A DNA stretch of 63,597 nucleotides from an uncultured virus (IMG/VR IMGVR_UViG_3300031134_000653). Its lineage: Duplodnaviria > Heunggongvirae > Uroviricota > Caudoviricetes. Every line of letters starts with the position of its first letter. Positions within the stretch are counted from its first letter, which is position 1. This document shows, in pieces, positions 6,888 through 46,960 of the stretch. Made by a program: the position numbers and the translations under genes. The DNA lies in the IMG/VR virus record IMGVR_UViG_3300031134_000653; one strand, written 5' to 3'. The notes under the pieces were generated by a model that was not told where the DNA came from, ran no database searches, and saw only the letters and a list, made by a program, of their open reading frames with translations.

Positions 6888-7300
6888 CAGATACCTCCAA
6901 CTGTCAAATAGCCTAAGAAAATTGCTAATGGGGCCAACACGTTGACAACACACAAAGGTACGATTACCCACAGGTTAGGTTTCATGACGTAAGGGTTGTA
7001 TCTCATGTCGCCAGTAACTCCGCTGTACCTGAAAACAATTTCTTGGTATCTCTTCCGCAGAAGTTCAATGCTAAGCGACACAACTGTCATAGCTAAAGAC
7101 AGGAATGCAAAAAGGACAATGGCAAGAATGGCCAGGAAGCCTTCAACCGGAGCGTTACTGGGGAAACCAAAGATTCCGAAAAAGATGGTGATACTGAATG
7201 CAGAAAAAACAGCAGCGACAATAGCTAATGACAACGAAGAGATACGTGAAGGCGGATTCTTTGGAGGCAGCATCAACGCTGGTTGGGAAGGCATGCTCAT
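6887..7300 (-). CDS. membrane protein
   Basis: 3 TM; CCGATA 9 nt upstream of ATG. Confidence 0.7.
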   Translation of the reverse strand: MSMPSQPALMLPPKNPPSRISSLSLAIVAAVFSAFSITIFFGIFGFPSNAPVEGFLAILAIVLFAFLSLAMTVVSLSIELLRKRYQEIVFRYSGVTGDMRYNPYVMKPNLWVIVPLCVVNVLAPLAIFLGYLTVGGI

Positions 7301-7348
7301 AACGAAGAATATCGGGTCATGGTAACTTTTGGTATAGAATCACTGCTT

Positions 7349-7921
7349 GTGAGTAAACTATATTTCCGACACAGTGCCATGAATGCAGGGAAAAGCACTA
7401 ACCTCCTTCAAGCTGCATACAACTATGAAGAGCGTGGCCAACGAGTCATTATTGCTAAACCCAGCATTGATACTAAAAGTGATCGTGTCTTATCTCGTTT
7501 AGGAGTGTCTGCTGAAGTGAACTGGCATGTAACGCCTGAAGTGGATGTCCGCGAACTCCTTCGTCAGGAAACCTCCAAAGTGGACTGTATCCTTATCGAT
7601 GAAGCTCAGTTCCTTTCACCTGAGCAGGTGGATCAGTTCTTCTACATTGCAGTCCAGGAAGACATCCCAGTTTTAGCTTACGGAATCCGCAGCGACTTTG
7701 CTACAAAGTCTTTCCCTGGTTCGATGCGTCTTTTGGAGATTGCTCATTCTTTGGAAGAAATGAAAACCATCTGTCGTTGTGGACGTAAAGCGTTATTCAA
7801 CGGAAGAAAAATTGATGGTGAGTTCGTCAAAGAAGGTTCTCAAGTAGCCATTGATGGACAGCAAGCTGAATATGAATCCCTCTGTGGAAACTGTTACATC
7901 AAATTCTTAGGCTGGTCATAA
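7349..7921 (+). CDS. tdk: thymidine kinase
   Basis: AMNAGKST, ILIDEAQFL, YGIRSDF, CRCGRKA, YESLCGNC; GTG start. Confidence 0.95.
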   Translation: MSKLYFRHSAMNAGKSTNLLQAAYNYEERGQRVIIAKPSIDTKSDRVLSRLGVSAEVNWHVTPEVDVRELLRQETSKVDCILIDEAQFLSPEQVDQFFYIAVQEDIPVLAYGIRSDFATKSFPGSMRLLEIAHSLEEMKTICRCGRKALFNGRKIDGEFVKEGSQVAIDGQQAEYESLCGNCYIKFLGWS

Positions 7922-15949: not shown

Positions 15950-17908
15950 ATGTCTAAACTTGTTCCCATTTCTCCTGAGTTGGCTGCCGAATGGCATCCA
16001 ACCAAGAACAACGTTGACATTGCCACAATCTCCGCCGGCAGTCACAGTTCAAGATGGTGGATAGGTCCTTGTGGACATGAGTTTTCCGCCTTGGTAAAAC
16101 ACCGATCAAAAGGTTCAGGATGTCCTTATTGTGCTGGAAAAGCAATTTTACCAGGCTTCAATGATCTGGCTACAGTTCGACCAGACTTGGCTCAAGACTG
16201 GGATCATTCTCGTAATTACTTGGCTGCTAATTCTGTTGGAATCTCCAATAAAATTCCTGTTGCTTGGAAATGTTCAGTTGGTCACGAATGGGTGAGCTCG
16301 GTTTCAGTAAGAAGTCGCAAACTCACGAATGAATGCCCTGTATGTCAAGGTAGAAAAACAATCAACCTTTTACCTGAACCTGTGGTGAAAGCAGTGCCTA
16401 ACAACTTGGCTGTAACAAACCCTGAGCTTTTGTCCAGTTGGGACAGTGGTCTCAACCAAGGATTAAGCTACGAACGGCTAACTCCAGGTTCAGAGATAAA
16501 AGCTTGGTGGAACTGCGAAATAGGCCACTCATACCAAATGCCTATTGCCAAACGAACTAACGGTAGAGGATGTCCTTTCTGTTCAGGTAAGTCAGTCCTG
16601 CCTGGTTTCAACGATTTAGTGACAAAGGACCCAGCTTTAGCTCAAGAATGGCATCCTACGCTCAATGGAGACCTCAAGCCCCGAGAGATTTCCGCTGGTT
16701 CGCATGCCAAATTCTGGTGGCAATGCAGTCAGGGCCATTCGTGGCAGGCTTCCATCGACAATCGAGGTCGAAATAAGAGAGGCTGTCCTTATTGTGCGGG
16801 GAAAGCTGTTCTCATTGGATTCAACGATTTAGCTACTACAGAACCAGTGCTTGCTACGGAATGGCATCCCACCCTAAATCTTGCATTGAGTCCTCAATCC
16901 GTTAGTAGAGGGTCAGACCAAAAAGTATGGTGGCAGTGTGACGAAGGACATGAATGGCAGATGTGGGTTTATGCTCGCTCAGGAGGACATGGCTGTCCTG
17001 AGTGTTGGGCAAAGAGCTACATTTCGAAACCTGAAAGAGAACTCTATGTTTTCCTTACTTCGTTAGGCTTTGAAGTCATTCAGTCTGACAGAAAAGTCTT
17101 AGGTAAAAATCAAGAGATTGATCTGTACCTCCCTGAGAAGCAGTTTGGTATTGAGTTCAATGGACTATACTGGCACAACGAGTATTGGAAAGATTCCCAG
17201 TACCATCTACAGAAGTTTGAAGCTGCTAAAGCTGCTGGAGTTCAATTAGTACAAATTTGGGAAGACGATTGGAATAAACGAAAGAACACTGTTCTTCGAG
17301 CGTTAGCTCACAAGCTGGGAGTCTCAAAAAAATTAGCGGGCCTTTATCCAGAGCTTTCTGTCGAAACAGAAACCGTTTATGCTCGCAAGACTTCAGTGAC
17401 GGAGCTATCTACCGAGCAGGCACGTACTTTTTTGGAGATGAATCACATCCAAGGTTTTGCCTCTGGCTCCTGTTATCTCGCTTTGTCAGATGACAATAGT
17501 CGTGTTCGTGCAGTTATGGTCCTCAAAAAGGAAGCAGATAACACTTTGAACATTGTCCGCTACGCGACAGCTGGAAGTGTTACAGGTGGGTTTACAAAAC
17601 TGTTAAAGCATTCTGAGAAGACGTATTTTCCGAGTTCGTTCATTACGTTCGCTGACCATACCATCAGTGATGGTGGGTTGTATGAGAACAATGGTTTTAC
17701 TGCTGATAAAGAACTACCACCAGATTACATGTATGTTGCAAGAGCAGAACGTAAACACAAGTTCGGTTACCGTCTTAAACGGTTCCAAAACGACCCTGCC
17801 CTTGTTTGGCAAGAAGGACTGACAGAACGAGAGCTTGCTCTACTAAACAATCTTCCTCGAATCTGGGACGCAGGTAAAACACGATATCGCTTGAATTGCT
17901 CAAACTAG
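15950..17908 (+). CDS. zinc-ribbon repeat protein with PD-(D/E)xK nuclease and C-terminal GNAT-like region (Hef-like homing endonuclease-type)
   Basis: About 5 WxCxxGHxW...GCPxC repeats; EIDLYLP..FGIEFNGLYWH; NHIQG, GGFTKLL, FAD, IWDAG. Confidence 0.8.
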   Translation: MSKLVPISPELAAEWHPTKNNVDIATISAGSHSSRWWIGPCGHEFSALVKHRSKGSGCPYCAGKAILPGFNDLATVRPDLAQDWDHSRNYLAANSVGISNKIPVAWKCSVGHEWVSSVSVRSRKLTNECPVCQGRKTINLLPEPVVKAVPNNLAVTNPELLSSWDSGLNQGLSYERLTPGSEIKAWWNCEIGHSYQMPIAKRTNGRGCPFCSGKSVLPGFNDLVTKDPALAQEWHPTLNGDLKPREISAGSHAKFWWQCSQGHSWQASIDNRGRNKRGCPYCAGKAVLIGFNDLATTEPVLATEWHPTLNLALSPQSVSRGSDQKVWWQCDEGHEWQMWVYARSGGHGCPECWAKSYISKPERELYVFLTSLGFEVIQSDRKVLGKNQEIDLYLPEKQFGIEFNGLYWHNEYWKDSQYHLQKFEAAKAAGVQLVQIWEDDWNKRKNTVLRALAHKLGVSKKLAGLYPELSVETETVYARKTSVTELSTEQARTFLEMNHIQGFASGSCYLALSDDNSRVRAVMVLKKEADNTLNIVRYATAGSVTGGFTKLLKHSEKTYFPSSFITFADHTISDGGLYENNGFTADKELPPDYMYVARAERKHKFGYRLKRFQNDPALVWQEGLTERELALLNNLPRIWDAGKTRYRLNCSN

Positions 17909-19031: not shown

Positions 19032-19733
19032 TCAGTTCTTTCGAAGTAGCTCATGCTGCAGGTCTGAAGCTGCGTTGTAAGCATTGGCTGTGTAGATAGC
19101 TTTCAAATTTTTGTCTGAATTATCAGCTCCGTTGAATTTTGACATAGCAGACAGACTTCCCCACTGTCGGTCAAAATCAATACGGCCACGGTCTTTTACC
19201 TTGTTCAGGTAAGAGTGGAACTGTTCCTCTGAGTAGCCTCGTTGAATTCCAGCTTGAACATATTCGAGAGCTGATGTCAGCTTCATTATTGTGTCAAGTC
19301 GCCCTGGTTTGTTACGGTCTTTCTGCATTTTGTACTCAGCTTCATACCTTAAAATAAGGGTCTTAGCTTTATCGAAGTATGCTTGTTGATCTTCAGTAGG
19401 CTGAAGACCGTTGTAACCATAACTTGCAGAATTTTGATTACGAAGCAAAGCTCTAAAATAGGATGAATCCACAACACTGGCTCTGCCTGAAAGCCACTGA
19501 TATCCAGGTGCTTTTATCTGGTCAAGGTTCTCAGCATTGTCTTGCTCTTCAATTTTCTTGTACTGGCGTTTCTTCTTCTGGACAGCAGCGACTTCAAGCT
19601 TAGCTGTTTCATAAGCATCATAGTCACCATTCTCTACTGCTTCATCAAGACGGATGAAAGCTCCGTGGTAGCGGCAGGCTGCTGGCTGCTTAGCACGACA
19701 AGGGTAGTCTGGTTTCAATGCACTTTTACTCAT
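19032..19733 (-). CDS. hypothetical protein with N-terminal CRAKQPAACRYHG tag
   Basis: Tag matches N-terminus of 42969..43691. Confidence 0.8.
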   Translation of the reverse strand: MSKSALKPDYPCRAKQPAACRYHGAFIRLDEAVENGDYDAYETAKLEVAAVQKKKRQYKKIEEQDNAENLDQIKAPGYQWLSGRASVVDSSYFRALLRNQNSASYGYNGLQPTEDQQAYFDKAKTLILRYEAEYKMQKDRNKPGRLDTIMKLTSALEYVQAGIQRGYSEEQFHSYLNKVKDRGRIDFDRQWGSLSAMSKFNGADNSDKNLKAIYTANAYNAASDLQHELLRKN

Positions 19734-30893: not shown

Positions 30894-31928
30894 CTACTTG
30901 GTCTCAGCGATGAGTCGTTCATCAACCATCTGGATAATAGGGAAATTCATATGGTCGCCTTTTTTGAACTTGCCCCATCGTTGGTAGCTTTCGTCGCTTT
31001 GTGAGTAACCTCTGCTGTATTGGCTGTTGAGGTCTTTTCTGTCTGAAGCAAACTCAAAACGCTGTGAACGGCGGTTACCTGTGATGCGGAACTTCGTGTT
31101 GCGAGGTAGGAGTATCTCTTTCTCCAGGGATTGGATGTCTCCTCCTCTTGATTTTTCCTCTGGCTGAAGGGAAGCTCCTTGCTTTGAGAGTATCTCCATG
31201 ACTACATACCCATGGTTTTTTGTTCCACCATTTCTGTCATGCATGTGAGCCATAATGAATTCAGGGTCAGCTGTAGTTGACATGAACCCTTTCTCCTTGA
31301 AAGCTTCCCCTGTTTTGAAGTACCGTTCGATGTATTCGTTAGGTGACACTCCGGCTGGCACTCTGAAGAAACGGTACAGTTTACGTGGACCTTCAGGTTC
31401 CTTCGCGGAAGCCAAAGCTTCGTCTAAATTCTTGATATCCCGGGGAACATTCTCCTCTAAGTCTTCTCGATAGAAAGGGTTCTCTCGAATCAGCTCTGGA
31501 AGTCCTTTCTTTCTCAGAACAGTGTTCACTAATTCGAATAAAGTCATTGTGTAACGTCTTACGCTGTTTGACTGGTCTCGGGTGAGGCTGTTAGCCCACT
31601 CTTCTTGCTCTTCGAAAAGCTTAGCTGTGTGGGCAAGGCGTTCTTCAGTGTCAAGACCAGTTATAGCTTCACGTGATTTCTTACTCAGTAAATCCAGCAG
31701 TTCTTGCGGTATCGGCTTCTGATTCGGCTTCTCCTGAAAAGGTAACGTCTCAGGAAGGTGCTCTCTCACCAAGTCCTTGTGGGCTTCTTTCCAACTCTGG
31801 ACGGCTTTCTCTGCAAGACGTTCTTTGTTGTACTCATTGCGATGCTTGTAACGTGCTTTTCTTCTGACATTAGCTATGGCGTCTGCGTATTCACAGCGTT
31901 GTCCGCCATCTGCTTTTGCTTTGCACAT
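30894..31928 (-). CDS. ADP-ribosyltransferase (VIP2/exoenzyme R-S-E type) with MCKAKADGGQRC N-terminus
   Basis: KLYRFF, KGFMSTT, EKEILLPRNTKFRI. Confidence 0.85.
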   Translation of the reverse strand: MCKAKADGGQRCEYADAIANVRRKARYKHRNEYNKERLAEKAVQSWKEAHKDLVREHLPETLPFQEKPNQKPIPQELLDLLSKKSREAITGLDTEERLAHTAKLFEEQEEWANSLTRDQSNSVRRYTMTLFELVNTVLRKKGLPELIRENPFYREDLEENVPRDIKNLDEALASAKEPEGPRKLYRFFRVPAGVSPNEYIERYFKTGEAFKEKGFMSTTADPEFIMAHMHDRNGGTKNHGYVVMEILSKQGASLQPEEKSRGGDIQSLEKEILLPRNTKFRITGNRRSQRFEFASDRKDLNSQYSRGYSQSDESYQRWGKFKKGDHMNFPIIQMVDERLIAETK

Positions 31929-32156
31929 AGGATTCCCTTTTCTCCGTCTTTTGACATACTCTTTATCGGTCAATTCCTTATGTTTGCAAGGAATTTAGAG
32001 GGGTCAATTATGAAACGAGGCTGATTATATAGGAACTTTATCTTGGCTCCAGTCACGCCCATACTTTACTATAAGTGCATATATGAGTGGTTTTAGATAC
32101 CCTGGTGCGATTAGATCAAGACTGGTAGATTGAAGTCCTATGAAGGAGAGAATCCA

Positions 32157-35190: not shown

Positions 35191-36384
35191 TTACTGTGAA
35201 TTTAGCCACGTTCCTATCAATTTTACTGTCTTGCTCAGGTCTTTGTCTTTACGAGAATATGGAATATTTAGTTGGTATAAATGCGGATGACTTAAAGGTA
35301 TCATTGCCAATTTATTCTCTCTTATTCTAATAACTCGAAAACCATTTTCTATCAACAGAAGAGTCTTTTGTACGTCTTTCTTCACTACGTCTTTATCACG
35401 ATGCCATAAAAATCCATCATATTCTATAGCAACATCATAATTTTTGTATTTACCTAATATATCAGGATATATTATTCTATCAGATAATACTAGTTTAGTT
35501 CTATGGGTGTTGGGCACTTCAGCCAGTAAAGTTGTAGCGAGTATGTCTCGATAAGCCTGTTCTATCTTTGAAGTTGAAGTAGAGCAACACTCGGGGCATT
35601 GCGTTCCTTGCTCTTTTGTTCGATTGAAAACAGAAGCTGTCCATCTATGACCTAAAGAGCAAACCCATTTTATTTTCTTTTCACTCCCTGAGGTAACTTC
35701 GTTAGGAGTAAGAGTGTTGTGCAAATAATCCCACTCTTTTAGTAAAATAGGATGAGTGGTAGCTAAGTTCGTTACTCCAACGTCTGGAGAATAACGGGAA
35801 CAGTATGGACAGCCAGACCCCCGCACTCTAGTACGTGGAGAAGACTGCCAGCTGTGAGTTTTGTTGATAGAACATTGCCACCATACCTTTTTGGCCGTTC
35901 CAGTAGTAACTTCTTCTGGAGTAATGTCATTCTTTTCTGGGTGCCATTGAATAGCAAGTTCTGGGTGTTTAAAACGGAAGTCATTGAACCCGACTAGGAT
36001 TTGTTTACCGCTACAAATCTTACATTCATACTTGTTCAATGTTCGATCAGCAATTCTATCCTCCCATAGATGGTCAGAATAAGATGAACATCTCCACCAA
36101 ACTTTTTTGTTTGAACCAGCTTGTACAGGCTTATTGGGAATACCATTGCGTTCGATAACCCATTGTTGCCAAACATCAGGATAAGTAAATTCTATACCTG
36201 AACAAGTAGGACATCCTCTGGCGGTGCGAGCAACATCTCTAATAGGCATAATCCACTTGTGTTGATTCAAACACACAAAGTAAGATTTTTTAGGAGAGTT
36301 GACTGAGAGAGCTAAAACTTCTGGTTCAGGAAAATAATCTAAATCATTTTCTTGATAATACTGGTATAACGTTTGACCAATCAT
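35191..36384 (-). CDS. zinc-ribbon repeat protein with C-terminal PD-(D/E)xK (Vsr/DUF559-like) nuclease
   Basis: KKVWWxC..H.W...CPxC repeats; PDI..IEYDGFLWH...D..KT...GFRVIRIRE. Confidence 0.8.
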   Translation of the reverse strand: MIGQTLYQYYQENDLDYFPEPEVLALSVNSPKKSYFVCLNQHKWIMPIRDVARTARGCPTCSGIEFTYPDVWQQWVIERNGIPNKPVQAGSNKKVWWRCSSYSDHLWEDRIADRTLNKYECKICSGKQILVGFNDFRFKHPELAIQWHPEKNDITPEEVTTGTAKKVWWQCSINKTHSWQSSPRTRVRGSGCPYCSRYSPDVGVTNLATTHPILLKEWDYLHNTLTPNEVTSGSEKKIKWVCSLGHRWTASVFNRTKEQGTQCPECCSTSTSKIEQAYRDILATTLLAEVPNTHRTKLVLSDRIIYPDILGKYKNYDVAIEYDGFLWHRDKDVVKKDVQKTLLLIENGFRVIRIRENKLAMIPLSHPHLYQLNIPYSRKDKDLSKTVKLIGTWLNSQ

Positions 36385-39675: not shown

Positions 39676-41262
39676 ATGCTTAAGTTTCACTCTGTCCTAA
39701 AATCTTCCCGCGCTGCCATCGATCTGGCTTCCATCATGGTTGGTGTTATCATCATTGGTCTGATTGGTGGCGTCATCGCGGCTACCGTCTTCGCTGTCAT
39801 CCCTTGGTCTCAAGACAAAGCAGCCAAACAGCAGCTGGAAGCTATTGCTACGGCTGAAAATGCCCAGTACGGTAAATCCTCCGAAGGTAACAGTAAGCCT
39901 TTCTATGGCGACTCTGCGACTTTAGCTTCAGGTGGTTGGTTGCAGCAAGGCGAAAACTATTGTGTAGTCACTCCAGATGAGGATAAGCAATCCTACAAAG
40001 CAGCTGTCAAATCAGCCTCTGGAAAAGTGTTTGTTTCTACCAACAAAGCCCCTAACCCTGTCGAAGCAATGACAGGCGAAACTACTTGTATTGGTGTTGG
40101 CACCGGAACTGGGGGCTCAACTCCTGAAGTGGGCAATCCTACGAACCCTACTGCTGTGAACTTCCTTCCATCAAACATGGGTACTGCCGCTCATATGATT
40201 GTCAACAAAAATAACAAGCTTTACTCTTGGGGTAACAATATTTATGGGCAGTTGGGTGATGGCACTACGGTCAACAAGAAAGCTCCTGCAAGTGTTCAGG
40301 ATGGTCGATTCACACAAATTACATCTAACTTAAACTTCACAGTAGCTTTACAGGATGACAACACTTTGTGGGCTTGGGGAAGAAATGACAGCGACTGGCT
40401 AAACGTAGGCAGTGTAGGCAACATAGTAACTCCCACAAAAGTTGTTGTCGCTGGAACACCTCTTGCAGGAAAAACCATCAAACAAATTTCTGCAAGCAAT
40501 TCTTTCTACTATGTTCTGACATCTGACAATGAAGTGTACAAATCAACTGTACGCTTTGGAACTAAAGTTAACTTTGCGGGAACTTCATTGGTTGGGAAAG
40601 AAATAGTAAAACTCGCTACTGATGTTGATTCTGATGCATATTTCCTTCTTTCTTCAGAAGGTAAAGTCTATGGAGGAGGAGATGGAAGGAACTATGTCCA
40701 AGCTGACAGAGACGGAACCATCCACACAGCACCTTTCCATGAAATTCAAACCACAAACAGCACTATGGCAGGCAAATTCATTACTGACATTGCGGTAGGA
40801 GGAAACACTGTTCGGGTACTCACATCAGACAACAAACTGTACGGATGGGGATACAACGAAACTGGTCAGTTAGGTTTTGCCAACAAGTCTATTTTAGTAC
40901 CTACAGAAACTTCGTTAGTGAACACTCCGTTAGCAGGTAAAACGATGACTAGCCTTGCAGCTGGCTCTGGACATACTCTAGTCTTGACTGATGAAGGTAA
41001 AGTATACTCAGCAGGCTCGAACGCTGCCGGAGAAAGAGGTTCCAGTAGTACAACTGTAGCGGTTCCTTATATTGCAGTTGAAACAGCAAACACTCCAATG
41101 GCTGACCAAAAAATTGTGGCAGTATCAGCTGGAAAAGCTTCATCCTATGCGTTAGATTCCAACGGCAAGTTGTATGCTTGGGGTGTGAATGCTAGTGGAC
41201 AGATGGGTAACGGAACTACAACCATTCAAAAATTGCCTATAGAAGTGACGTTTGCTGAATAA
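39676..41262 (+). CDS. pilin-like N-terminus fused to RCC1/BLIP-II beta-propeller
   Basis: AAIDLASIMVGVIIIGLIGGVIAATVFAVIPWSQD; repeated LYxWGxNxxGQLG. Confidence 0.85.
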   Translation: MLKFHSVLKSSRAAIDLASIMVGVIIIGLIGGVIAATVFAVIPWSQDKAAKQQLEAIATAENAQYGKSSEGNSKPFYGDSATLASGGWLQQGENYCVVTPDEDKQSYKAAVKSASGKVFVSTNKAPNPVEAMTGETTCIGVGTGTGGSTPEVGNPTNPTAVNFLPSNMGTAAHMIVNKNNKLYSWGNNIYGQLGDGTTVNKKAPASVQDGRFTQITSNLNFTVALQDDNTLWAWGRNDSDWLNVGSVGNIVTPTKVVVAGTPLAGKTIKQISASNSFYYVLTSDNEVYKSTVRFGTKVNFAGTSLVGKEIVKLATDVDSDAYFLLSSEGKVYGGGDGRNYVQADRDGTIHTAPFHEIQTTNSTMAGKFITDIAVGGNTVRVLTSDNKLYGWGYNETGQLGFANKSILVPTETSLVNTPLAGKTMTSLAAGSGHTLVLTDEGKVYSAGSNAAGERGSSSTTVAVPYIAVETANTPMADQKIVAVSAGKASSYALDSNGKLYAWGVNASGQMGNGTTTIQKLPIEVTFAE

Positions 41263-42968: not shown

Positions 42969-43691
42969 TCATTGATTATGGTTTAGAGGTTTTTCGTTCA
43001 GCATGTTCTCCAGCTCTTGAGAGCCATCTTGTTCATACACTCTTTGGCTAACCTTTTCAGGTTTCACAATGGACACAGAACGCATGTCTTTTTCCGCCGA
43101 GAGAAGTAACTCCCACTCTTTTGGGCTGTACTTTTTAGGTTGTTGTTTGGCTCGTTTCATGTATTCACGCATGGTGATACCTGAATCCCAGTATTCTTTG
43201 TGATGAGCCTCGTTGTCATTCCCAGAGGAAGCTTTTTCCCAAGCATGGATGGAGTAAACATATGTGGAGTCAATGTCTACTCTGATTTCACGGACCTGGA
43301 TATCGACAACATTTGAATGCCATTTACCTCGGACCCATCGTGTTACTCCACCAAGAGTTGGTGAAGCGAAAACGCCGTCAGTTCTCCCTTGCCGATTTTC
43401 TGGCTTCATACTGTCAGACTTCACATAAGAATCCTTTTCCACCCCACGTTCTGTTGGGGCAAAAGGTTCACCTGAACGATACACAGCAACAGTGGTCGTT
43501 CCATCAGCTTCTTTTCGGACATCCCAGGAGGCTTCAAAATCTGGCGTGACGATGGCTTGGAATTTGAGCTCTTCTTCGCGTTCTCTGATCTGGTTCATGA
43601 ACGCAATCCGCTGTCGGTACGCTTTGCCATGCAGCCGGCAAGTAGCAGGATTCTTTTTGCGGCATTTTCCGCGAAGGTCTTGTGATGGCAT
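42969..43691 (-). CDS. putative ART-fold protein with CRKKNPATCRLHG tag
   Basis: VYRSG...VFASPT...YWDSG...EWELLL. Confidence 0.7.
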   Translation of the reverse strand: MPSQDLRGKCRKKNPATCRLHGKAYRQRIAFMNQIREREEELKFQAIVTPDFEASWDVRKEADGTTTVAVYRSGEPFAPTERGVEKDSYVKSDSMKPENRQGRTDGVFASPTLGGVTRWVRGKWHSNVVDIQVREIRVDIDSTYVYSIHAWEKASSGNDNEAHHKEYWDSGITMREYMKRAKQQPKKYSPKEWELLLSAEKDMRSVSIVKPEKVSQRVYEQDGSQELENMLNEKPLNHNQ

Positions 43692-43712
43692 GCACGATTT
43701 CTAACAGCTAAC

Positions 43713-43752
43713 AAAAGCAACGCTCTACCTAACTTGGTAGAGCGTTGCTTTT
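43713..43752 (-). terminator. hairpin, 17-bp arms
   Basis: AAAAGCAACGCTCTACC-taactt-GGTAGAGCGTTGCTTTT. Confidence 0.85.
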
Positions 43753-44377
43753 AGTTCCAGTAGCCAACGTGGCGCTGCTGGCGGGTGTTCACTGCGTCGT
43801 AGTCGTCACCCCACAGGTCTTCCCCGTCGTTGTAGTCCTCAGCCATGGCTTCCAGCATGAGGCGTTCGGTGGCTCGCTGGCTGGAGTGGTACTGGGTCTT
43901 CAAGTCCTTCTTGAAGGGGCGAGCGGCTCGGCGGTGGGAGTCGACCCAGGTGTAGCACAGTTCCTGCATCTCGTCTCCGACGTAACGGACAGGGCGGACC
44001 TGCTCGTTTTCTGCGGTGCAGTGGTCGGGGCGGTGACCTACGAGGGTCTTCTCGCGGAGAGGGCGCTCGTAGGTGGTGACGATTTCGGTGGGCTGCAGGT
44101 CGTAGAAGTTGTACCAGTTCAGCTCTCCGCTTTCACGGAGCTTGAAGTACTCGGTGGTGGTGTAGACCTTGCTGGTGCGGTCACGGAAGACCACACGGTA
44201 TCCCTTCACGGGAGGTCGCTCGACGGTCTCCATGACCTGGTTGCCGTCAGCGTCCTTCACAGGCAGCCAGTGGTAGACTTCCTCCCCTGCCAGGTGGTGG
44301 TAGTGGGAGACGCTACGCAGTTCGTTCTTGTCGTTAGAACGCACCCAGTACGGGCGGTCCTTGAAAGTTCTCGACAT
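43751..44377 (-). CDS. hypothetical protein, paralogue family D (MSRTFKDRP)
   Basis: Shares MSxTFKDRPxWVxSND, PDHCT, YHS, DxWGDxYxxVNTRQ with neighbour. Confidence 0.85.
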   Translation of the reverse strand: MSRTFKDRPYWVRSNDKNELRSVSHYHHLAGEEVYHWLPVKDADGNQVMETVERPPVKGYRVVFRDRTSKVYTTTEYFKLRESGELNWYNFYDLQPTEIVTTYERPLREKTLVGHRPDHCTAENEQVRPVRYVGDEMQELCYTWVDSHRRAARPFKKDLKTQYHSSQRATERLMLEAMAEDYNDGEDLWGDDYDAVNTRQQRHVGYWN

Positions 44378-44471
44378 ATTCTTTTCTACCTTTCGGTAGA
44401 TAGCTCTCTGAAAGCCCCTTGTGGACTTTCCGGTCTATCTACTTATGAAGGTAGCGAATGGCGTTCGACAT
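44378..44471 (-). promoter_or_regulatory. leader peptide (44471-44439, MSNAIRYLHK) plus translational attenuator
   Basis: uORF with AAGGA RBS; mutually exclusive GUAGAUAG/CUAUCUAC and CUACC-GAAA-GGUAG helices. Confidence 0.75.
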
Positions 44472-44525
44472 GTAATTCAATCCTTAGATAATGTTTTGGA
44501 TAAGCGTTTGACTGCTTATGATTCT

Positions 44526-44554
44526 ACTATAGTGCATGCCTGAGGTCTTGTCAA
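44526..44554 (-). promoter_or_regulatory. sigma-A type promoter
   Basis: TTGACA-17-TATAGT. Confidence 0.8.
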
Positions 44555-44564
44555 CCTCAGAGTT

Positions 44565-45263
44565 TCAATCCCACCAACCGTTGTGTTTCTTCTGGCGAGT
44601 GTTCACAGATTCATACTCGTCACCCCACATGTCTTCAACATTGGATGCGTTTTTGGCAGCTTCACGAAGAAGGTTGCTTTCAGTGCGGCGAGCTTTGGAG
44701 TGGTACTGGCGGCGGTCCTTTTTGTCAGGACGATTTCTGTAGTAACGCTCCCAAGGTCTCTGAATGACAGGGAAGCAAAGGTGAGTCTCGTCAGGAGTCC
44801 ACAATCCTTCGCTGTCTTTGGTCAACGGAACATCCATGGTGCAGTGGTCAGGGTATGTTCCGACCACACGGAACTCGCGTTCGATGGTTTTTCTCATGAA
44901 CGTCTGATTGAGGTAAACCACTTCTTCGATGTTGGCAATCAGCTCATCAGTTTTGTGACTGCGAGCATGAGTGGTGAAGTAGTAGTCTCCTCTGCGTCCC
45001 ACTTCAGTGCTGCGACCATTGAAGATGTAGAATTCCTTGGAGGAAACATATCTCCAAGTTTTGTCTCTGAGAAGGAAAGCATACTCGACAGTCATCGGAG
45101 TTGCGACGTACTTGTAGTCAGGGTTGCCGTTCTCATCAACAGCTTCAGCCCAGCGTTTGCGGGGACGACCAGCGTAGTGGTGGTTATGCTTAATTTGTCG
45201 TCCACGGCTGTTCAAGTCATTGCTTTTGACCCACAGTGGACGGTCTTTGAATGTGTTGGACAT
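44565..45263 (-). CDS. hypothetical protein, paralogue family D (MSNTFKDRP)
   Basis: Paralogue of 43751..44377. Confidence 0.85.
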   Translation of the reverse strand: MSNTFKDRPLWVKSNDLNSRGRQIKHNHHYAGRPRKRWAEAVDENGNPDYKYVATPMTVEYAFLLRDKTWRYVSSKEFYIFNGRSTEVGRRGDYYFTTHARSHKTDELIANIEEVVYLNQTFMRKTIEREFRVVGTYPDHCTMDVPLTKDSEGLWTPDETHLCFPVIQRPWERYYRNRPDKKDRRQYHSKARRTESNLLREAAKNASNVEDMWGDEYESVNTRQKKHNGWWD

Positions 45264-45360
45264 TCGTTCCTACCTTATAGGTAGGCAGTTCATATTAGGC
45301 CCCGAGTGGACCTGAAAGACTACCTACCTATGTAGGTAGAAAAATTTGTGAATTCTTCAT
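45264..45360 (-). promoter_or_regulatory. leader peptide (45360-45328, MKNSQIFLPT) plus translational attenuator
   Basis: Same architecture as 44378-44471. Confidence 0.75.
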
Positions 45361-45473
45361 AGACCATCAGTTCCGCTTTCTTCCATCACCAACCATTGTA
45401 GGCGATTGCCAACTATTATTGGCATGTATCAATCATTATACGCTCAAACGTATCCTAAGTCAATAAATTTGGT

Positions 45474-45698
45474 CTATGCAGCTTCCATGTTGAACCCACC
45501 ATGACGCAGCACATCATCACTGATGCGAACAACAGCGTCACTTGATTCATCAGCAAACTCACCAATGAAAGAACCTTGGTGATGGTCAAGAAGACGGACG
45601 CGACGAACGTCGGTACCTCGTTTCGGCACAAGTACAATGACAGGCTTCTCTCCGTTACGCACCTGTACGATCAGTTTGTTCACAAGATCAGTGTTCAT
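45474..45698 (-). CDS. small hypothetical protein
   Basis: AAGGAG RBS. Confidence 0.7.
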   Translation of the reverse strand: MNTDLVNKLIVQVRNGEKPVIVLVPKRGTDVRRVRLLDHHQGSFIGEFADESSDAVVRISDDVLRHGGFNMEAA

Positions 45699-45757
45699 AA
45701 GGTTCTCCTTTTCGTTAATACTATTCTAACATCTCCTACTGTGATAATATTATCCGC

Positions 45758-46261
45758 ATGGCTGACTATAAACTGAGAGAAAATATAACTGAGCTGAAAA
45801 CGTTCTCAGTTTTCATTGAAGACCCCCGCGAATCAGATGGTGGAGGCTGGTCTTACTCAGCTCGTGAGTCAGATGAGTTTATTATTCTCGACTGGGCTGG
45901 TAGCATTAGGAAACAGTACCTACCTACTTTGATTCAGTTGCTCATTTTTGTTGCCGAAAAAGATGTTGAGCGGCACAACCTACCAGCTTTCAACATCGGA
46001 AGCATGGTGTATGACACTGATGAGGAATTGGCTGATGATGTTGTAGAGTCTTACTCAGAATCAGCTATTGGTGTTGACCTACATGAAATGTTCATCATTA
46101 CCACAGCCCATGTTGAACCTAAACGTCGTCAAGTAACCACTATCACTGTGAACCGAATTACAGACAGCTACCATGTCTTTGTTGGCTCAAGCCATACTCT
46201 GACTTTCCAGAGCTGGGAAATTGAAGGCATTACAGTTCTACTTCAAGCTTTAGCTGTTTGA
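45758..46261 (+). CDS. hypothetical protein, leaderless
   Basis: TGA-TAATAT-7-ATG. Confidence 0.7.
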   Translation: MADYKLRENITELKTFSVFIEDPRESDGGGWSYSARESDEFIILDWAGSIRKQYLPTLIQLLIFVAEKDVERHNLPAFNIGSMVYDTDEELADDVVESYSESAIGVDLHEMFIITTAHVEPKRRQVTTITVNRITDSYHVFVGSSHTLTFQSWEIEGITVLLQALAV

Positions 46262-46291
46262 CATTGCTCCAGAAACGTGTAAGCTAACATC

Positions 46292-46960
46292 ATGACCACA
46301 ACGGTTCTTAGCACTGACGGATTCGTCATTGGCACCGAAACTGACTACAGCACCCGCTGCATGGATTGCGGCATGGGCTACAGCGATGAAATCATGGACA
46401 AAATGTGCCAGATTTTCAACCTGAGCAAGACTGTCAACTGCCGTAAATGTGGTAAGACTTACAGCAACATTGCAGAGTTCGAGATTTGGGTCCGTCATGA
46501 TGCAGCCAAGTTCTTCAACGTTGACACTGTTCGCAAGACTCGCTGGTTCCATGCAACTGACAACCCGAACTGGTTCCAAGACATTCTTAGCGGTGGAAAC
46601 GTAAAATCTGACTACTACGGTCAGGGCGATGTGATGGTCCATCTTGGAATCAAGGATTCAGCTCTTGCCCGTGCTGAACAGCGTCATGACGAGTTCATCA
46701 ACTGCTACGGTGTTGAAATTCCTCAGTGGTACCTTTATGAAGTTGAGCTGAAGGATGATGCTGCAATTTTTCCTGAGATGCAGGATGATGAGGATGGTTT
46801 CCCTTCGAACAGTGCCGCTCCTGAAGAAATGTACACTGACGGGTTTGAATGGCATCCTCATGGTGTGACTCGCTATGTGAACGCTTTTGAGCAGCCTGGT
46901 TCGATTAGCCTTCTTGCTAATGCTCATACGTTCAGCTTGATTGCACGACACGAAATCTAA
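46292..46960 (+). CDS. zinc finger plus possible H-type ART-fold domain
   Basis: CMDC/CRKC; WFHAT...VHLG...LYEVEL...YVNAFE; leaderless TTGACA..TAAGCT-6-ATG. Confidence 0.6.
   Translation: MTTTVLSTDGFVIGTETDYSTRCMDCGMGYSDEIMDKMCQIFNLSKTVNCRKCGKTYSNIAEFEIWVRHDAAKFFNVDTVRKTRWFHATDNPNWFQDILSGGNVKSDYYGQGDVMVHLGIKDSALARAEQRHDEFINCYGVEIPQWYLYEVELKDDAAIFPEMQDDEDGFPSNSAAPEEMYTDGFEWHPHGVTRYVNAFEQPGSISLLANAHTFSLIARHEI

Follow-up and report, generated by a model that had tools for sequence, protein, structure and literature searches.

Short reading-frame leaders with competing pairings over the ribosome-binding site, candidate ribosome-read attenuators, precede an uncharacterised phage gene family

Two paralogous genes and their leaders

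The 63,597-nucleotide IMG/VR record IMGVR_UViG_3300031134_000653 of an uncultured virus (Caudoviricetes), hereafter the window, carries two genes on its minus strand, A and B, each preceded by a leader that holds a short upstream open reading frame (uORF) and a set of competing RNA pairings reaching the main Shine-Dalgarno (SD) sequence (Table 1). The parts of these leaders exist and are conserved, their pairings co-vary and their thermodynamic profile has the predicted shape. A translational attenuator of conserved design, read by the ribosome and following the logic of the ermC and cat systems, probably precedes each gene.

Genes A and B are identical at 82 of 239 aligned residues (34%, E 2e-33), which upholds the paralogy claimed in a preliminary description made from the sequence alone, and the coordinates and sequences of the genes and uORFs in that description were all recovered as given on re-reading of the window. 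A separate sigma-70-like promoter is predicted for each gene. The TAG stop codons of uORFs A and B lie 61 and 64 nucleotides (nt) upstream of the respective main ATG codons. The block TAGGTAGGTAG of leader B presents a stop in all three frames, with a candidate alternative uORF of 15 codons in another frame ending at its third TAG.

Four segments are distinguished in each leader. Segment 1 would correspond to the last codons of the uORF, segment 2 to the bases from the stop codon onward, segment 3 to the far arm of the hairpin that follows, and segment 4 to the SD region of the main gene; the four can pair alternatively because segment 1 resembles segment 3 and segment 2 resembles segment 4. 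The minimum free energy (MFE) structure of both leaders is one long nested hairpin, with 1:4 formed around 2:3 and 2:3 around an apical hairpin, at -32.5 kcal/mol for leader A (z -3.8) and -40.1 kcal/mol for leader B (z -4.8), and none of 200 dinucleotide shuffles of either leader folded as well. The 3:4 hairpins, 2:3 helices and inner GUCC/GGGC hairpin of the preliminary description are found in both leaders on folding. Its assignment of 3:4 as the helix hiding the ribosome-binding site (RBS) stands in part, with the hairpin present but the MFE structure of both leaders being the nested 1:4 form; this pairing of the 3' codons of the uORF with the RBS had been missed. In a scan of positions 43000-46500 against Rfam (cmscan, E up to 10), no row on the leaders reached a gathering score, the four rows returned all being chance-level eukaryotic snoRNA or miRNA matches.

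Strain variants at 45348 and 45364 are present in RNA-run and DNA-run contigs; one strain variant changes codon 5 of uORF B from Gln to Glu, and another lies 4 nt 5' of the ATG of uORF B. None of the 18 strain variants listed falls within a paired segment of either leader, which is not significant because about one would be expected by chance. The palindrome CTACC-N(1-12)-GGTAG occurs six times in the window against an expected 0.21, with five of the six within 43725-45339, and one of those of the locus tops the terminator-like hairpin 3' of gene A. The CUACC...GGUAG of that hairpin is the motif of both leaders, and may be either a duplication remnant or functional. A copy of gene A of 99% identity lies on a metagenome contig of 788,683 base pairs (bp; L003, with L numbers denoting family loci throughout).

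Table 1. Features of the locus of genes A and B, in window coordinates (aa, amino acids)
Feature	Position	Strand	Description
Gene A	43751-44377	-	208 aa, paralogue of gene B
Gene B	44565-45263	-	232 aa, member of the MSxTxKDRPxWV family
Gene B promoter-like site	45435..45463	-	TTGACT-17-TATAAT; sigma-70-like, 11/12 consensus positions
Gene A promoter-like site	44526..44554	-	TTGACA-17-TATAGT; sigma-70-like, 11/12 consensus positions
Terminator-like hairpin 3' of gene A	43711..43750	-	15-bp stem, U tail; CUACC...GGUAG at top
uORF A	44439..44471	-	MSNAIRYLHK, 10 codons + TAG; AAGGA 11 nt upstream
uORF B	45328..45360	-	MKNSQIFLPT, 10 codons + TAG
Candidate alternative uORF B, other frame	45320..45367	-	ATG, 15 codons (MVYEEFTNFSTYIGR) + TAG
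Leader B segment 1	45334..45342	-	UUCUACCUA, final uORF codons; partner is segment 4 in MFE fold
Leader B segment 2	45318..45331	-	5' arm of helix 2:3, beginning at uORF stop codon
Leader B apical hairpin	45297..45313	-	AGGUCC-ACUCG-GGGCCU
Leader B segment 3	45277..45291	-	3' arm of 2:3; 3' end CCUACCU is anti-SD arm of hairpin 3:4
Leader B segment 4	45267..45275	-	AAGGUAGGA, SD region of gene B
Leader A segment 1	44448..44454	-	CUACCUU, uORF codons 6-8; partner is segment 4 in MFE fold
Leader A segment 2	44435..44442	-	GUAGAUAG, includes stop codon; 5' arm of helix 2:3
Leader A apical hairpin	44410..44430	-	GAAAGUCC-ACAAG-GGGCUUUC
Leader A segment 3, GAAA loop and segment 4	44386..44403	-	CUAUCUAC; AAGGUAG is the SD
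Leader A 3:4 hairpin	44386-44399	-	CUACC-GAAA-GGUAG

Leaders and pairings upstream of relatives

The protein family was collected with an exhaustive HMMER profile search, with matches taken at E 0.001 or better. Pattern scans for family loci gave one genomic locus, in an Arthrobacter metagenome-assembled genome, together with 33 metagenomic and about 19 distinct viral loci, with further viral scans adding only L068. Reading of the 130-150 nt upstream of each family locus yielded 31 distinct uORF leaders built on one plan, the two of the window included, from metagenomic and viral contigs with duplicates removed (L003 and L004, near-identical to the window; L026 and L029, near-identical to L025; L043, L055 and L067, the same as L023; L059, the same as L041; and L066, the same as L048), and the SD-preceded uORF described for the window accordingly recurs upstream of homologues. 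The common order is an SD, the ATG of the uORF, its stop codon, a hairpin beginning at the stop, a short hairpin that has a GAAA-like loop and the main SD as its 3' arm, and the main ATG. In 26 of the 31 leaders, the long form, 52-66 nt separate the stop from the main ATG, compared with 27-35 nt in the other five, the short form. An anti-SD duplex of -4 kcal/mol or better lies just upstream of the uORF in 17 of 23 evaluable leaders. The length of exactly 10 codons put forward for the uORFs is correct for both of those in the window but does not extend to the homologues, where the uORFs span 3-22 codons with a median of 10, ten being the mode rather than a rule.

The uORF stop is TAG in 27 of the 31 leaders (28 if the 5-codon frame of L016 is taken), with TAA in L024, L028 and L044, either TAA or TAG in L016 depending on the frame, and TGA in none. 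TAG makes up 29% of the stops of long ORFs in the same loci and 9% of those in the window, giving a binomial p of 3.5e-10 for a conservative count of 26 of 31, a value which overstates independence given the kinship among the leaders. Pairing in 2:3 starts with the G of TAG, which faces the CC of the anti-SD, and structure and shared ancestry can therefore explain the preference. Locus L020 carries two tandem family genes, each with its own uORF leader (1035-1473 and 2416-2902), the first copy having been found by a covariance model (R3, below) at E 0.086, with the uORF MKSTGFVMSR followed by TAG. With this second leader found, the tandem arrangement of the window recurs in L020.

Among 24 long-form leaders, the MFE structure is the nested 1:4, 2:3 and apical hairpin in 16, with the stop codon at the junction, and has 3:4 formed beside 2:3 in the other eight, the nested fold amounting to an irregular duplex of 21-29 bp. 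When the last 43 nt were folded alone, a hairpin over the SD region was obtained in 23 of the 24. A MAFFT alignment of all 24 leaders submitted to RNAalifold gave no consensus structure, the cause being misalignment and not the absence of structure. Since MAFFT was unable to align all of the leaders, an alignment-free partner-swap test was used, in which the RNAduplex energy of each segment with its own partner was compared with that obtained with the partners of other leaders (24 leaders, 20000 permutations). Helix 2:3 gave -22.5 kcal/mol with its own partner and -10.6 kcal/mol with those of others, the own partner being the best in all 24 leaders, with corresponding values of -8.5 and -5.4 kcal/mol for 1:4, and of -10.9 and -6.9 kcal/mol for 3:4; none of the 20000 permutations reached the observed value for any of these three helices. 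For the control pairings 1:3 and 2:4 it was reached by 7400 and 15930 permutations respectively. Repetition of the test on 25 leaders, with windows set by landmarks alone, left 1:4 at 0 of 20000 for all five boundaries and 3:4 at 0, 0 and 24 of 20000 for the boundaries m-13, m-15 and m-17, with 3:4 fading once the boundary cuts into segment 3 (2213 and 10874 of 20000).

Covariation was counted on an unfitted MAFFT alignment of 10 leaders of one subgroup. Helix 2:3 and the apical hairpin are 78.6% paired in this alignment, compared with 62.8% in shuffles (0 of 500 as high) and 32-40% when slid, and compensatory changes are found in 12 of their 17 pairs, so that the compensatory changes reported for the two leaders of the window extend across relatives. 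A covariance model of the window's pair (R1) found L005 (E 1.5e-5) and L006 (E 0.009), these being the only confident matches, together with reverse-strand echoes of the palindromic leaders; unfiltered, it added only weak rows for L024, L011, L012, L027 and L016. Models of the other subgroup (R2 and R3) found L024 and L020 strongly, and L021, L028, L007, L041, L013, L047 and L027 weakly and in the right place, with R3 finding leader B of the window only at E 6.2, among noise, and leader A not at all. The ermC-type structural logic set out in the preliminary description, namely a leader ORF, a 3:4 helix over the RBS and a competing 2:3 helix, is kept upstream of the homologues, with complementarity specific to each leader.

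Ribosome position and the proposed switch

The effect of a ribosome on the leader was modelled as a forced single-stranded footprint extending from 12 nt behind the first base of the P site to 11, 14 or 17 nt ahead of it, with the cost of opening the main RBS (-15 to +5) calculated for 26 leaders. Opening of the RBS costs a mean of 12.4 kcal/mol in free RNA, falls to a minimum of 7.1-7.4 kcal/mol when the P site is 3-5 codons short of the final sense codon, and returns to 11.1-11.2 kcal/mol with the stop codon in the A site, the profile having the same shape for leading edges at P+11, P+14 and P+17. The corresponding costs for the free, mid-uORF and terminating states are 12.4, 3.8 and 8.9 kcal/mol in leader A, and 15.7, 9.0 and 14.6 kcal/mol in leader B. 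Once a mid-uORF ribosome has occupied segment 1, with segment 3 still held in 2:3, nothing remains for segment 4 to pair with; a ribosome at termination disrupts the foot of 2:3, releasing the anti-SD end of segment 3 to segment 4. No run of four or more U residues follows 3:4 in any of 24 leaders inspected by eye, which places control at translation and not at termination of transcription.

In the switch proposed here, the promoter would give rise to an mRNA with a short 5' reading frame carrying its own SD. Whilst the uORF is free of ribosomes, the leader would adopt either the nested 1:4, 2:3 and apical hairpin or the side-by-side form with 3:4, burying the main RBS either way. A ribosome some 3-5 codons before the last codon would cover segment 1 and leave 2:3 intact, with segment 4 single-stranded and the gene on. 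A ribosome at the stop codon would again cover segment 1, the start of 2:3 being melted and segment 3 re-pairing with segment 4 to keep the gene off. The leader would thereby report slow or arrested elongation on the uORF.

Translational attenuation of ermC employs four segments with mutually exclusive pairings, in which 3:4 hides the SD and 2:3 forms when a ribosome occupies segment 1 of a 19-codon leader, and in cat and cmlA stalling after a handful of codons on a very short leader is proposed to open an SD hairpin. The leaders described here resemble those of ermC and ermB in their SD-preceded short ORF, in four segments with exclusive pairings, and in the placement of 3:4 over the main SD and formation of 2:3 when segment 1 is occupied. 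Unlike ermC, segment 1 also pairs with segment 4 to give a nested ground state and 1:2 is weakly supported, the stop codon stands at the foot of 2:3 of a leader of about 10 codons whose peptide is not conserved, and the downstream gene encodes an uncharacterised phage protein and not an rRNA methylase, with no Rfam match. The very short leader recalls cat and cmlA; however, those systems use a single hairpin and a defined stall peptide, compared with two alternative anti-SD partners and no conserved peptide here. The leaders also resemble trpL, hisL and pheL, in which the position of a ribosome on a short frame, set by tRNA supply, chooses between helices, with Asn, Tyr, His and Asp codons over-represented here; those attenuators nevertheless regulate transcription termination and contain runs of a single regulatory codon, whereas the present leaders have neither a terminator nor a run of any one codon. 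In PMC5118997, erm is described as activated when a stalled leader ribosome destabilises an inhibitory stem-loop.

Asn, Tyr, His and Asp codons account for 48 of the 168 last sense codons (six or fewer per uORF) read in frame, compared with 19 of 168 in each of the other two frames (Fisher p 2.5e-6), and for 76 of 274 of all uORF codons, compared with 16.4% in long ORFs of the same loci. This excess is post hoc, having been noticed and tested on the same data. Of the leaders found later, that of L068 fits, with three of its last six codons from this set, and the second leader of L020 has none. The main proteins do not avoid these four residues. The queuosine-family tRNAs, which are the targets of anticodon nucleases of the colicin E5 type, decode the Tyr, His, Asp and Asn codons. 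It is tempting, but rather doubtful, to see the leader as a phage-borne gauge of tRNA supply, in which depletion or cleavage of host tRNA would slow translation of the uORF and induce a protein, kept by phages within their tRNA arrays beside PTH2, RtcB, Macro and RNA-ligase genes, that repairs or bypasses the damage, as a counter-defence induced by the effect of the defence on decoding.

Several points weigh against the leaders being attenuators. The whole case is computational, and the footprint model ignores kinetics and co-transcriptional folding. Conservation of the leader peptide was not found among the leaders compared, so that no stall motif can be named, and the peptide would be only about 4-7 residues long at the predicted 'on' position. 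The 1:2 pairing, which is a defining helix of ermC, is weakly supported in the swap test (own partner -8.9 kcal/mol, others -7.8 kcal/mol, 459 of 20000), being present in the MFE structure of some leaders, such as those of L006 and L035, with the support for 1:4 better. In the 10-leader alignment 3:4 exceeds its controls only modestly, being 62.9% paired (30-46% when slid), a value reached by 34 of 500 shuffles. The leaders are interrelated, hence their counts are not independent events, and the covariance models do not bridge the subgroups, so that common descent of all of the leaders rests on their shared architecture. Furthermore, 17 relatives of the Streptomyces phage type (BRock-type: L001, L014, L015, L032, L037-L040, L042, L045, L046, L049-L053 and L054) and three others (L002, L019 and L031) are without this leader. 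In the BRock-type upstream region, about 20-60 nt before the gene, the SD is immediately preceded by a conserved (T)AGCACTA motif and a hairpin is formed around CCGG/CUGG, with a uORF in some loci only and no consistent one.

Every translating ribosome crosses the 'on' window, and plain coupling would therefore give part of the same picture as attenuation. In such coupling, a passing uORF ribosome would open 1:4 and allow a 30S subunit to load, with 3:4 re-closing afterwards and no pause being sensed. This is the less likely account, yet one to be taken seriously, with the RBS buried in free RNA (12.4 kcal/mol) and made cheaper to open by a mid-uORF ribosome, the uORFs having good SDs, and non-conserved peptides being just what a mechanism independent of sequence predicts. 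However, coupling has no need of a second co-varying anti-SD in 3:4, nor of a stop codon positioned precisely at the base of 2:3, and because the model closes the RBS again on termination (11.1-11.2 kcal/mol), each passage would leave it open only briefly. Nor is the layout that of classical termination-reinitiation, in which the stop lies at or near the main start, with the stop here 52-66 nt upstream in the long form and 27-35 nt in the short form. The long hairpin might alternatively be a site of RNase III processing or stability, or an autoregulatory operator for the basic protein encoded downstream, to which the uORF would be incidental, as could be suggested by the 21-29 bp irregular duplex of the nested fold and by the recurrence of CUACC/GGUAG atop the gene A terminator, where a shared binding site might be expected. 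We regard this as unlikely: the sequences of the arms vary freely across relatives with only the pairing retained, which makes a sequence-specific operator improbable, and chance would not be expected to give 31 leaders an SD-preceded ATG uORF that stops at one and the same point of the structure.

The predominance of TAG (27 of 31 leaders, with no TGA) and the presence of a tRNA with a CUA anticodon within 2.4 kb of the family gene in L012 and L035 raise the prospect that the element reads TAG itself, with release factor 1 activity or amber suppression by a phage tRNA(CUA) being sensed through a change of fold upon read-through or slow termination. There is little to recommend this, as a ribosome held at the stop leaves the RBS closed in the model (11.1-11.2 kcal/mol), and the preference for TAG is explicable by structure and shared ancestry. 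An amber read-through sensor was tried as a candidate and rejected, because read-through would neither meet a stop at a conserved place nor open the RBS: the following in-frame stop falls 3-16 codons further along, 8 of 25 leaders have none ahead of the main gene, and the RBS remains closed until about 11 codons further on. Least probable is transcription attenuation of the trp/his type, in which 3:4 would be a terminator and the uORF ribosome would select terminator or antiterminator. The four-segment layout does match that of classical attenuators, but 3:4 is followed by no U run in any of the 24 leaders, its 3' arm is the main SD only a few bases before the ATG, and a terminator scan flagged only the 1:2 hairpin of leader B, which has a poor tail.

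The protein family and its surroundings

The family profile search returned 153 representative proteins at E<=0.001 and 64 at <=1e-10, nearly all of 120-240 aa, and the family is almost entirely viral. Its members begin with MSRTxKDRPYWV from residue 1 and end in GWW, with S2, T4, K6, D7, P9, V12, H28, C141 and C163 invariant in an alignment of 42 sequences, and M1, W11, H26 and several basic residues nearly so. The H-x-H motif and two invariant Cys residues suggest a putative metal site. Searches of Pfam, PHROGs, NCBIfam and PADLOC gave no match for the products of genes A and B or their neighbours, and Pfam applied to all 42 aligned members gave only two single-member chance rows. A profile search of the PDB with the family returned a single row at E 0.82. 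An AlphaFold model of the family protein (predicted local distance difference test, pLDDT, 82; predicted template modelling score, pTM, 0.53) found nothing at E 0.001 or better in the PDB with Foldseek, a best match of E 2.8e-3 in BFVD with a template modelling (TM) score of 0.15, and in VIA-align a match through the C-terminal helix only, with Z below 5. The family falls within 'hypothetical protein' clusters of the ESM Atlas, the best of which is 96% viral. A word-index homologue search matched only a twin of 95% identity, tblastn of gene B against GenBank phages gave no match, and a full-text literature search found no account of the leader or the protein family.

Cultured carriers of the family are the Streptomyces phages GiJojo, LuckySocke, Alone3, pSt2308 and BRock, with the gene annotated as hypothetical in all. 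The homologue in BRock and gp45 of LuckySocke belong to the same family, being 51-56% identical to that of the metagenomic locus L038, which is linked to the genes of the window through the family profile. These phage genes lie between tRNA genes and differ in their upstream region, which has no consistent uORF; in LuckySocke (L054, 12862-20365) the gene is flanked by tRNA-Arg(acg) and tRNA-Arg(tct) and has an RNA ligase close by.

One or more tRNA genes lie within 2.5 kb in 36 of the 47 family loci scanned, with up to 12 per locus, and are present at 19 of the 27 uORF-leader loci of that scan; L068 has 19 tRNAs in 5.6 kb. A Pfam scan of 71 neighbouring ORFs from 17 loci found PTH2 domains (L007:2715-3626, L012:958-1941 and L035:1068-2048), RtcB RNA ligases (L048:782-2050 and L016:1371-2561), Macro domains (L011:3222-3686 and L023:3299-3769) and NUDIX domains (L012 and L035). 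The CUA-anticodon tRNAs of L012 (792-865) and L035 (145-219), which are of the amber-suppressor type and labelled 'Pyl' by ARAGORN, lie upstream of both the PTH2-domain gene and the family gene. The tRNA arrays of the relatives and the PTH2, RtcB, Macro and RNA-ligase neighbours suggest a role in translation or RNA repair, and our best guess is that the family protein has a translation- or tRNA-related function which phages would use when decoding is disturbed. The guess of a translation-related role in the preliminary description is thus favoured by gene neighbourhoods, though only indirectly.

The 63.6-kb window itself contains no tRNA genes, and no phage structural genes were found among the 53 window ORFs scanned. 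It is a patchwork, with small uncharacterised genes interspersed with genes of mobile or host-takeover type (15950-17908 (+), 35191-36384 (-), 30894-31973 (-), 7283-7921 (+) and 39676-41262 (+)), among them two DUF4379/homing-endonuclease proteins, an ADP-ribosyltransferase-like protein, a thymidine kinase and an RCC1-repeat protein with a hydrophobic N-terminal segment. The proteins encoded at 42969-43691 (-) and 19032-19733 (-), of 240 and 233 aa respectively, share by eye a similar N-terminal Cys motif, C-R-x-K-x-P-x-x-C-R-x-H-G, and neither matched a family.

Plant, phyllosphere and straw metagenomes contain the stretch with the locus, as do six metatranscriptome runs. In three RNA runs, assembled contigs extend over both leaders and over portions of both genes, which is weak evidence of expression, with one such contig (44072-44619) crossing promoter A and no RNA-contig coverage of 43500-43960. 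These RNA-run data are assembled contigs in which carry-over of DNA is possible, and as contigs they carry no information on the ends, strand or level of transcripts.

Most known attenuators read by the ribosome stand before genes for antibiotic resistance or amino-acid biosynthesis. The leaders described here are a distinct and widely spread version, placed before an uncharacterised viral family that is mostly located in tRNA arrays. If the attenuator model is true, phages carry a built-in sensor of disturbed translation, and the family protein would then rank as a strong candidate for a new factor in translation or tRNA maintenance. The leader would represent a compact, peptide-independent design for sensing the speed of elongation, with two partners for the RBS and the stop codon at the foot of a helix, and offers a testable handle on the presence of non-tRNA genes in phage tRNA arrays.

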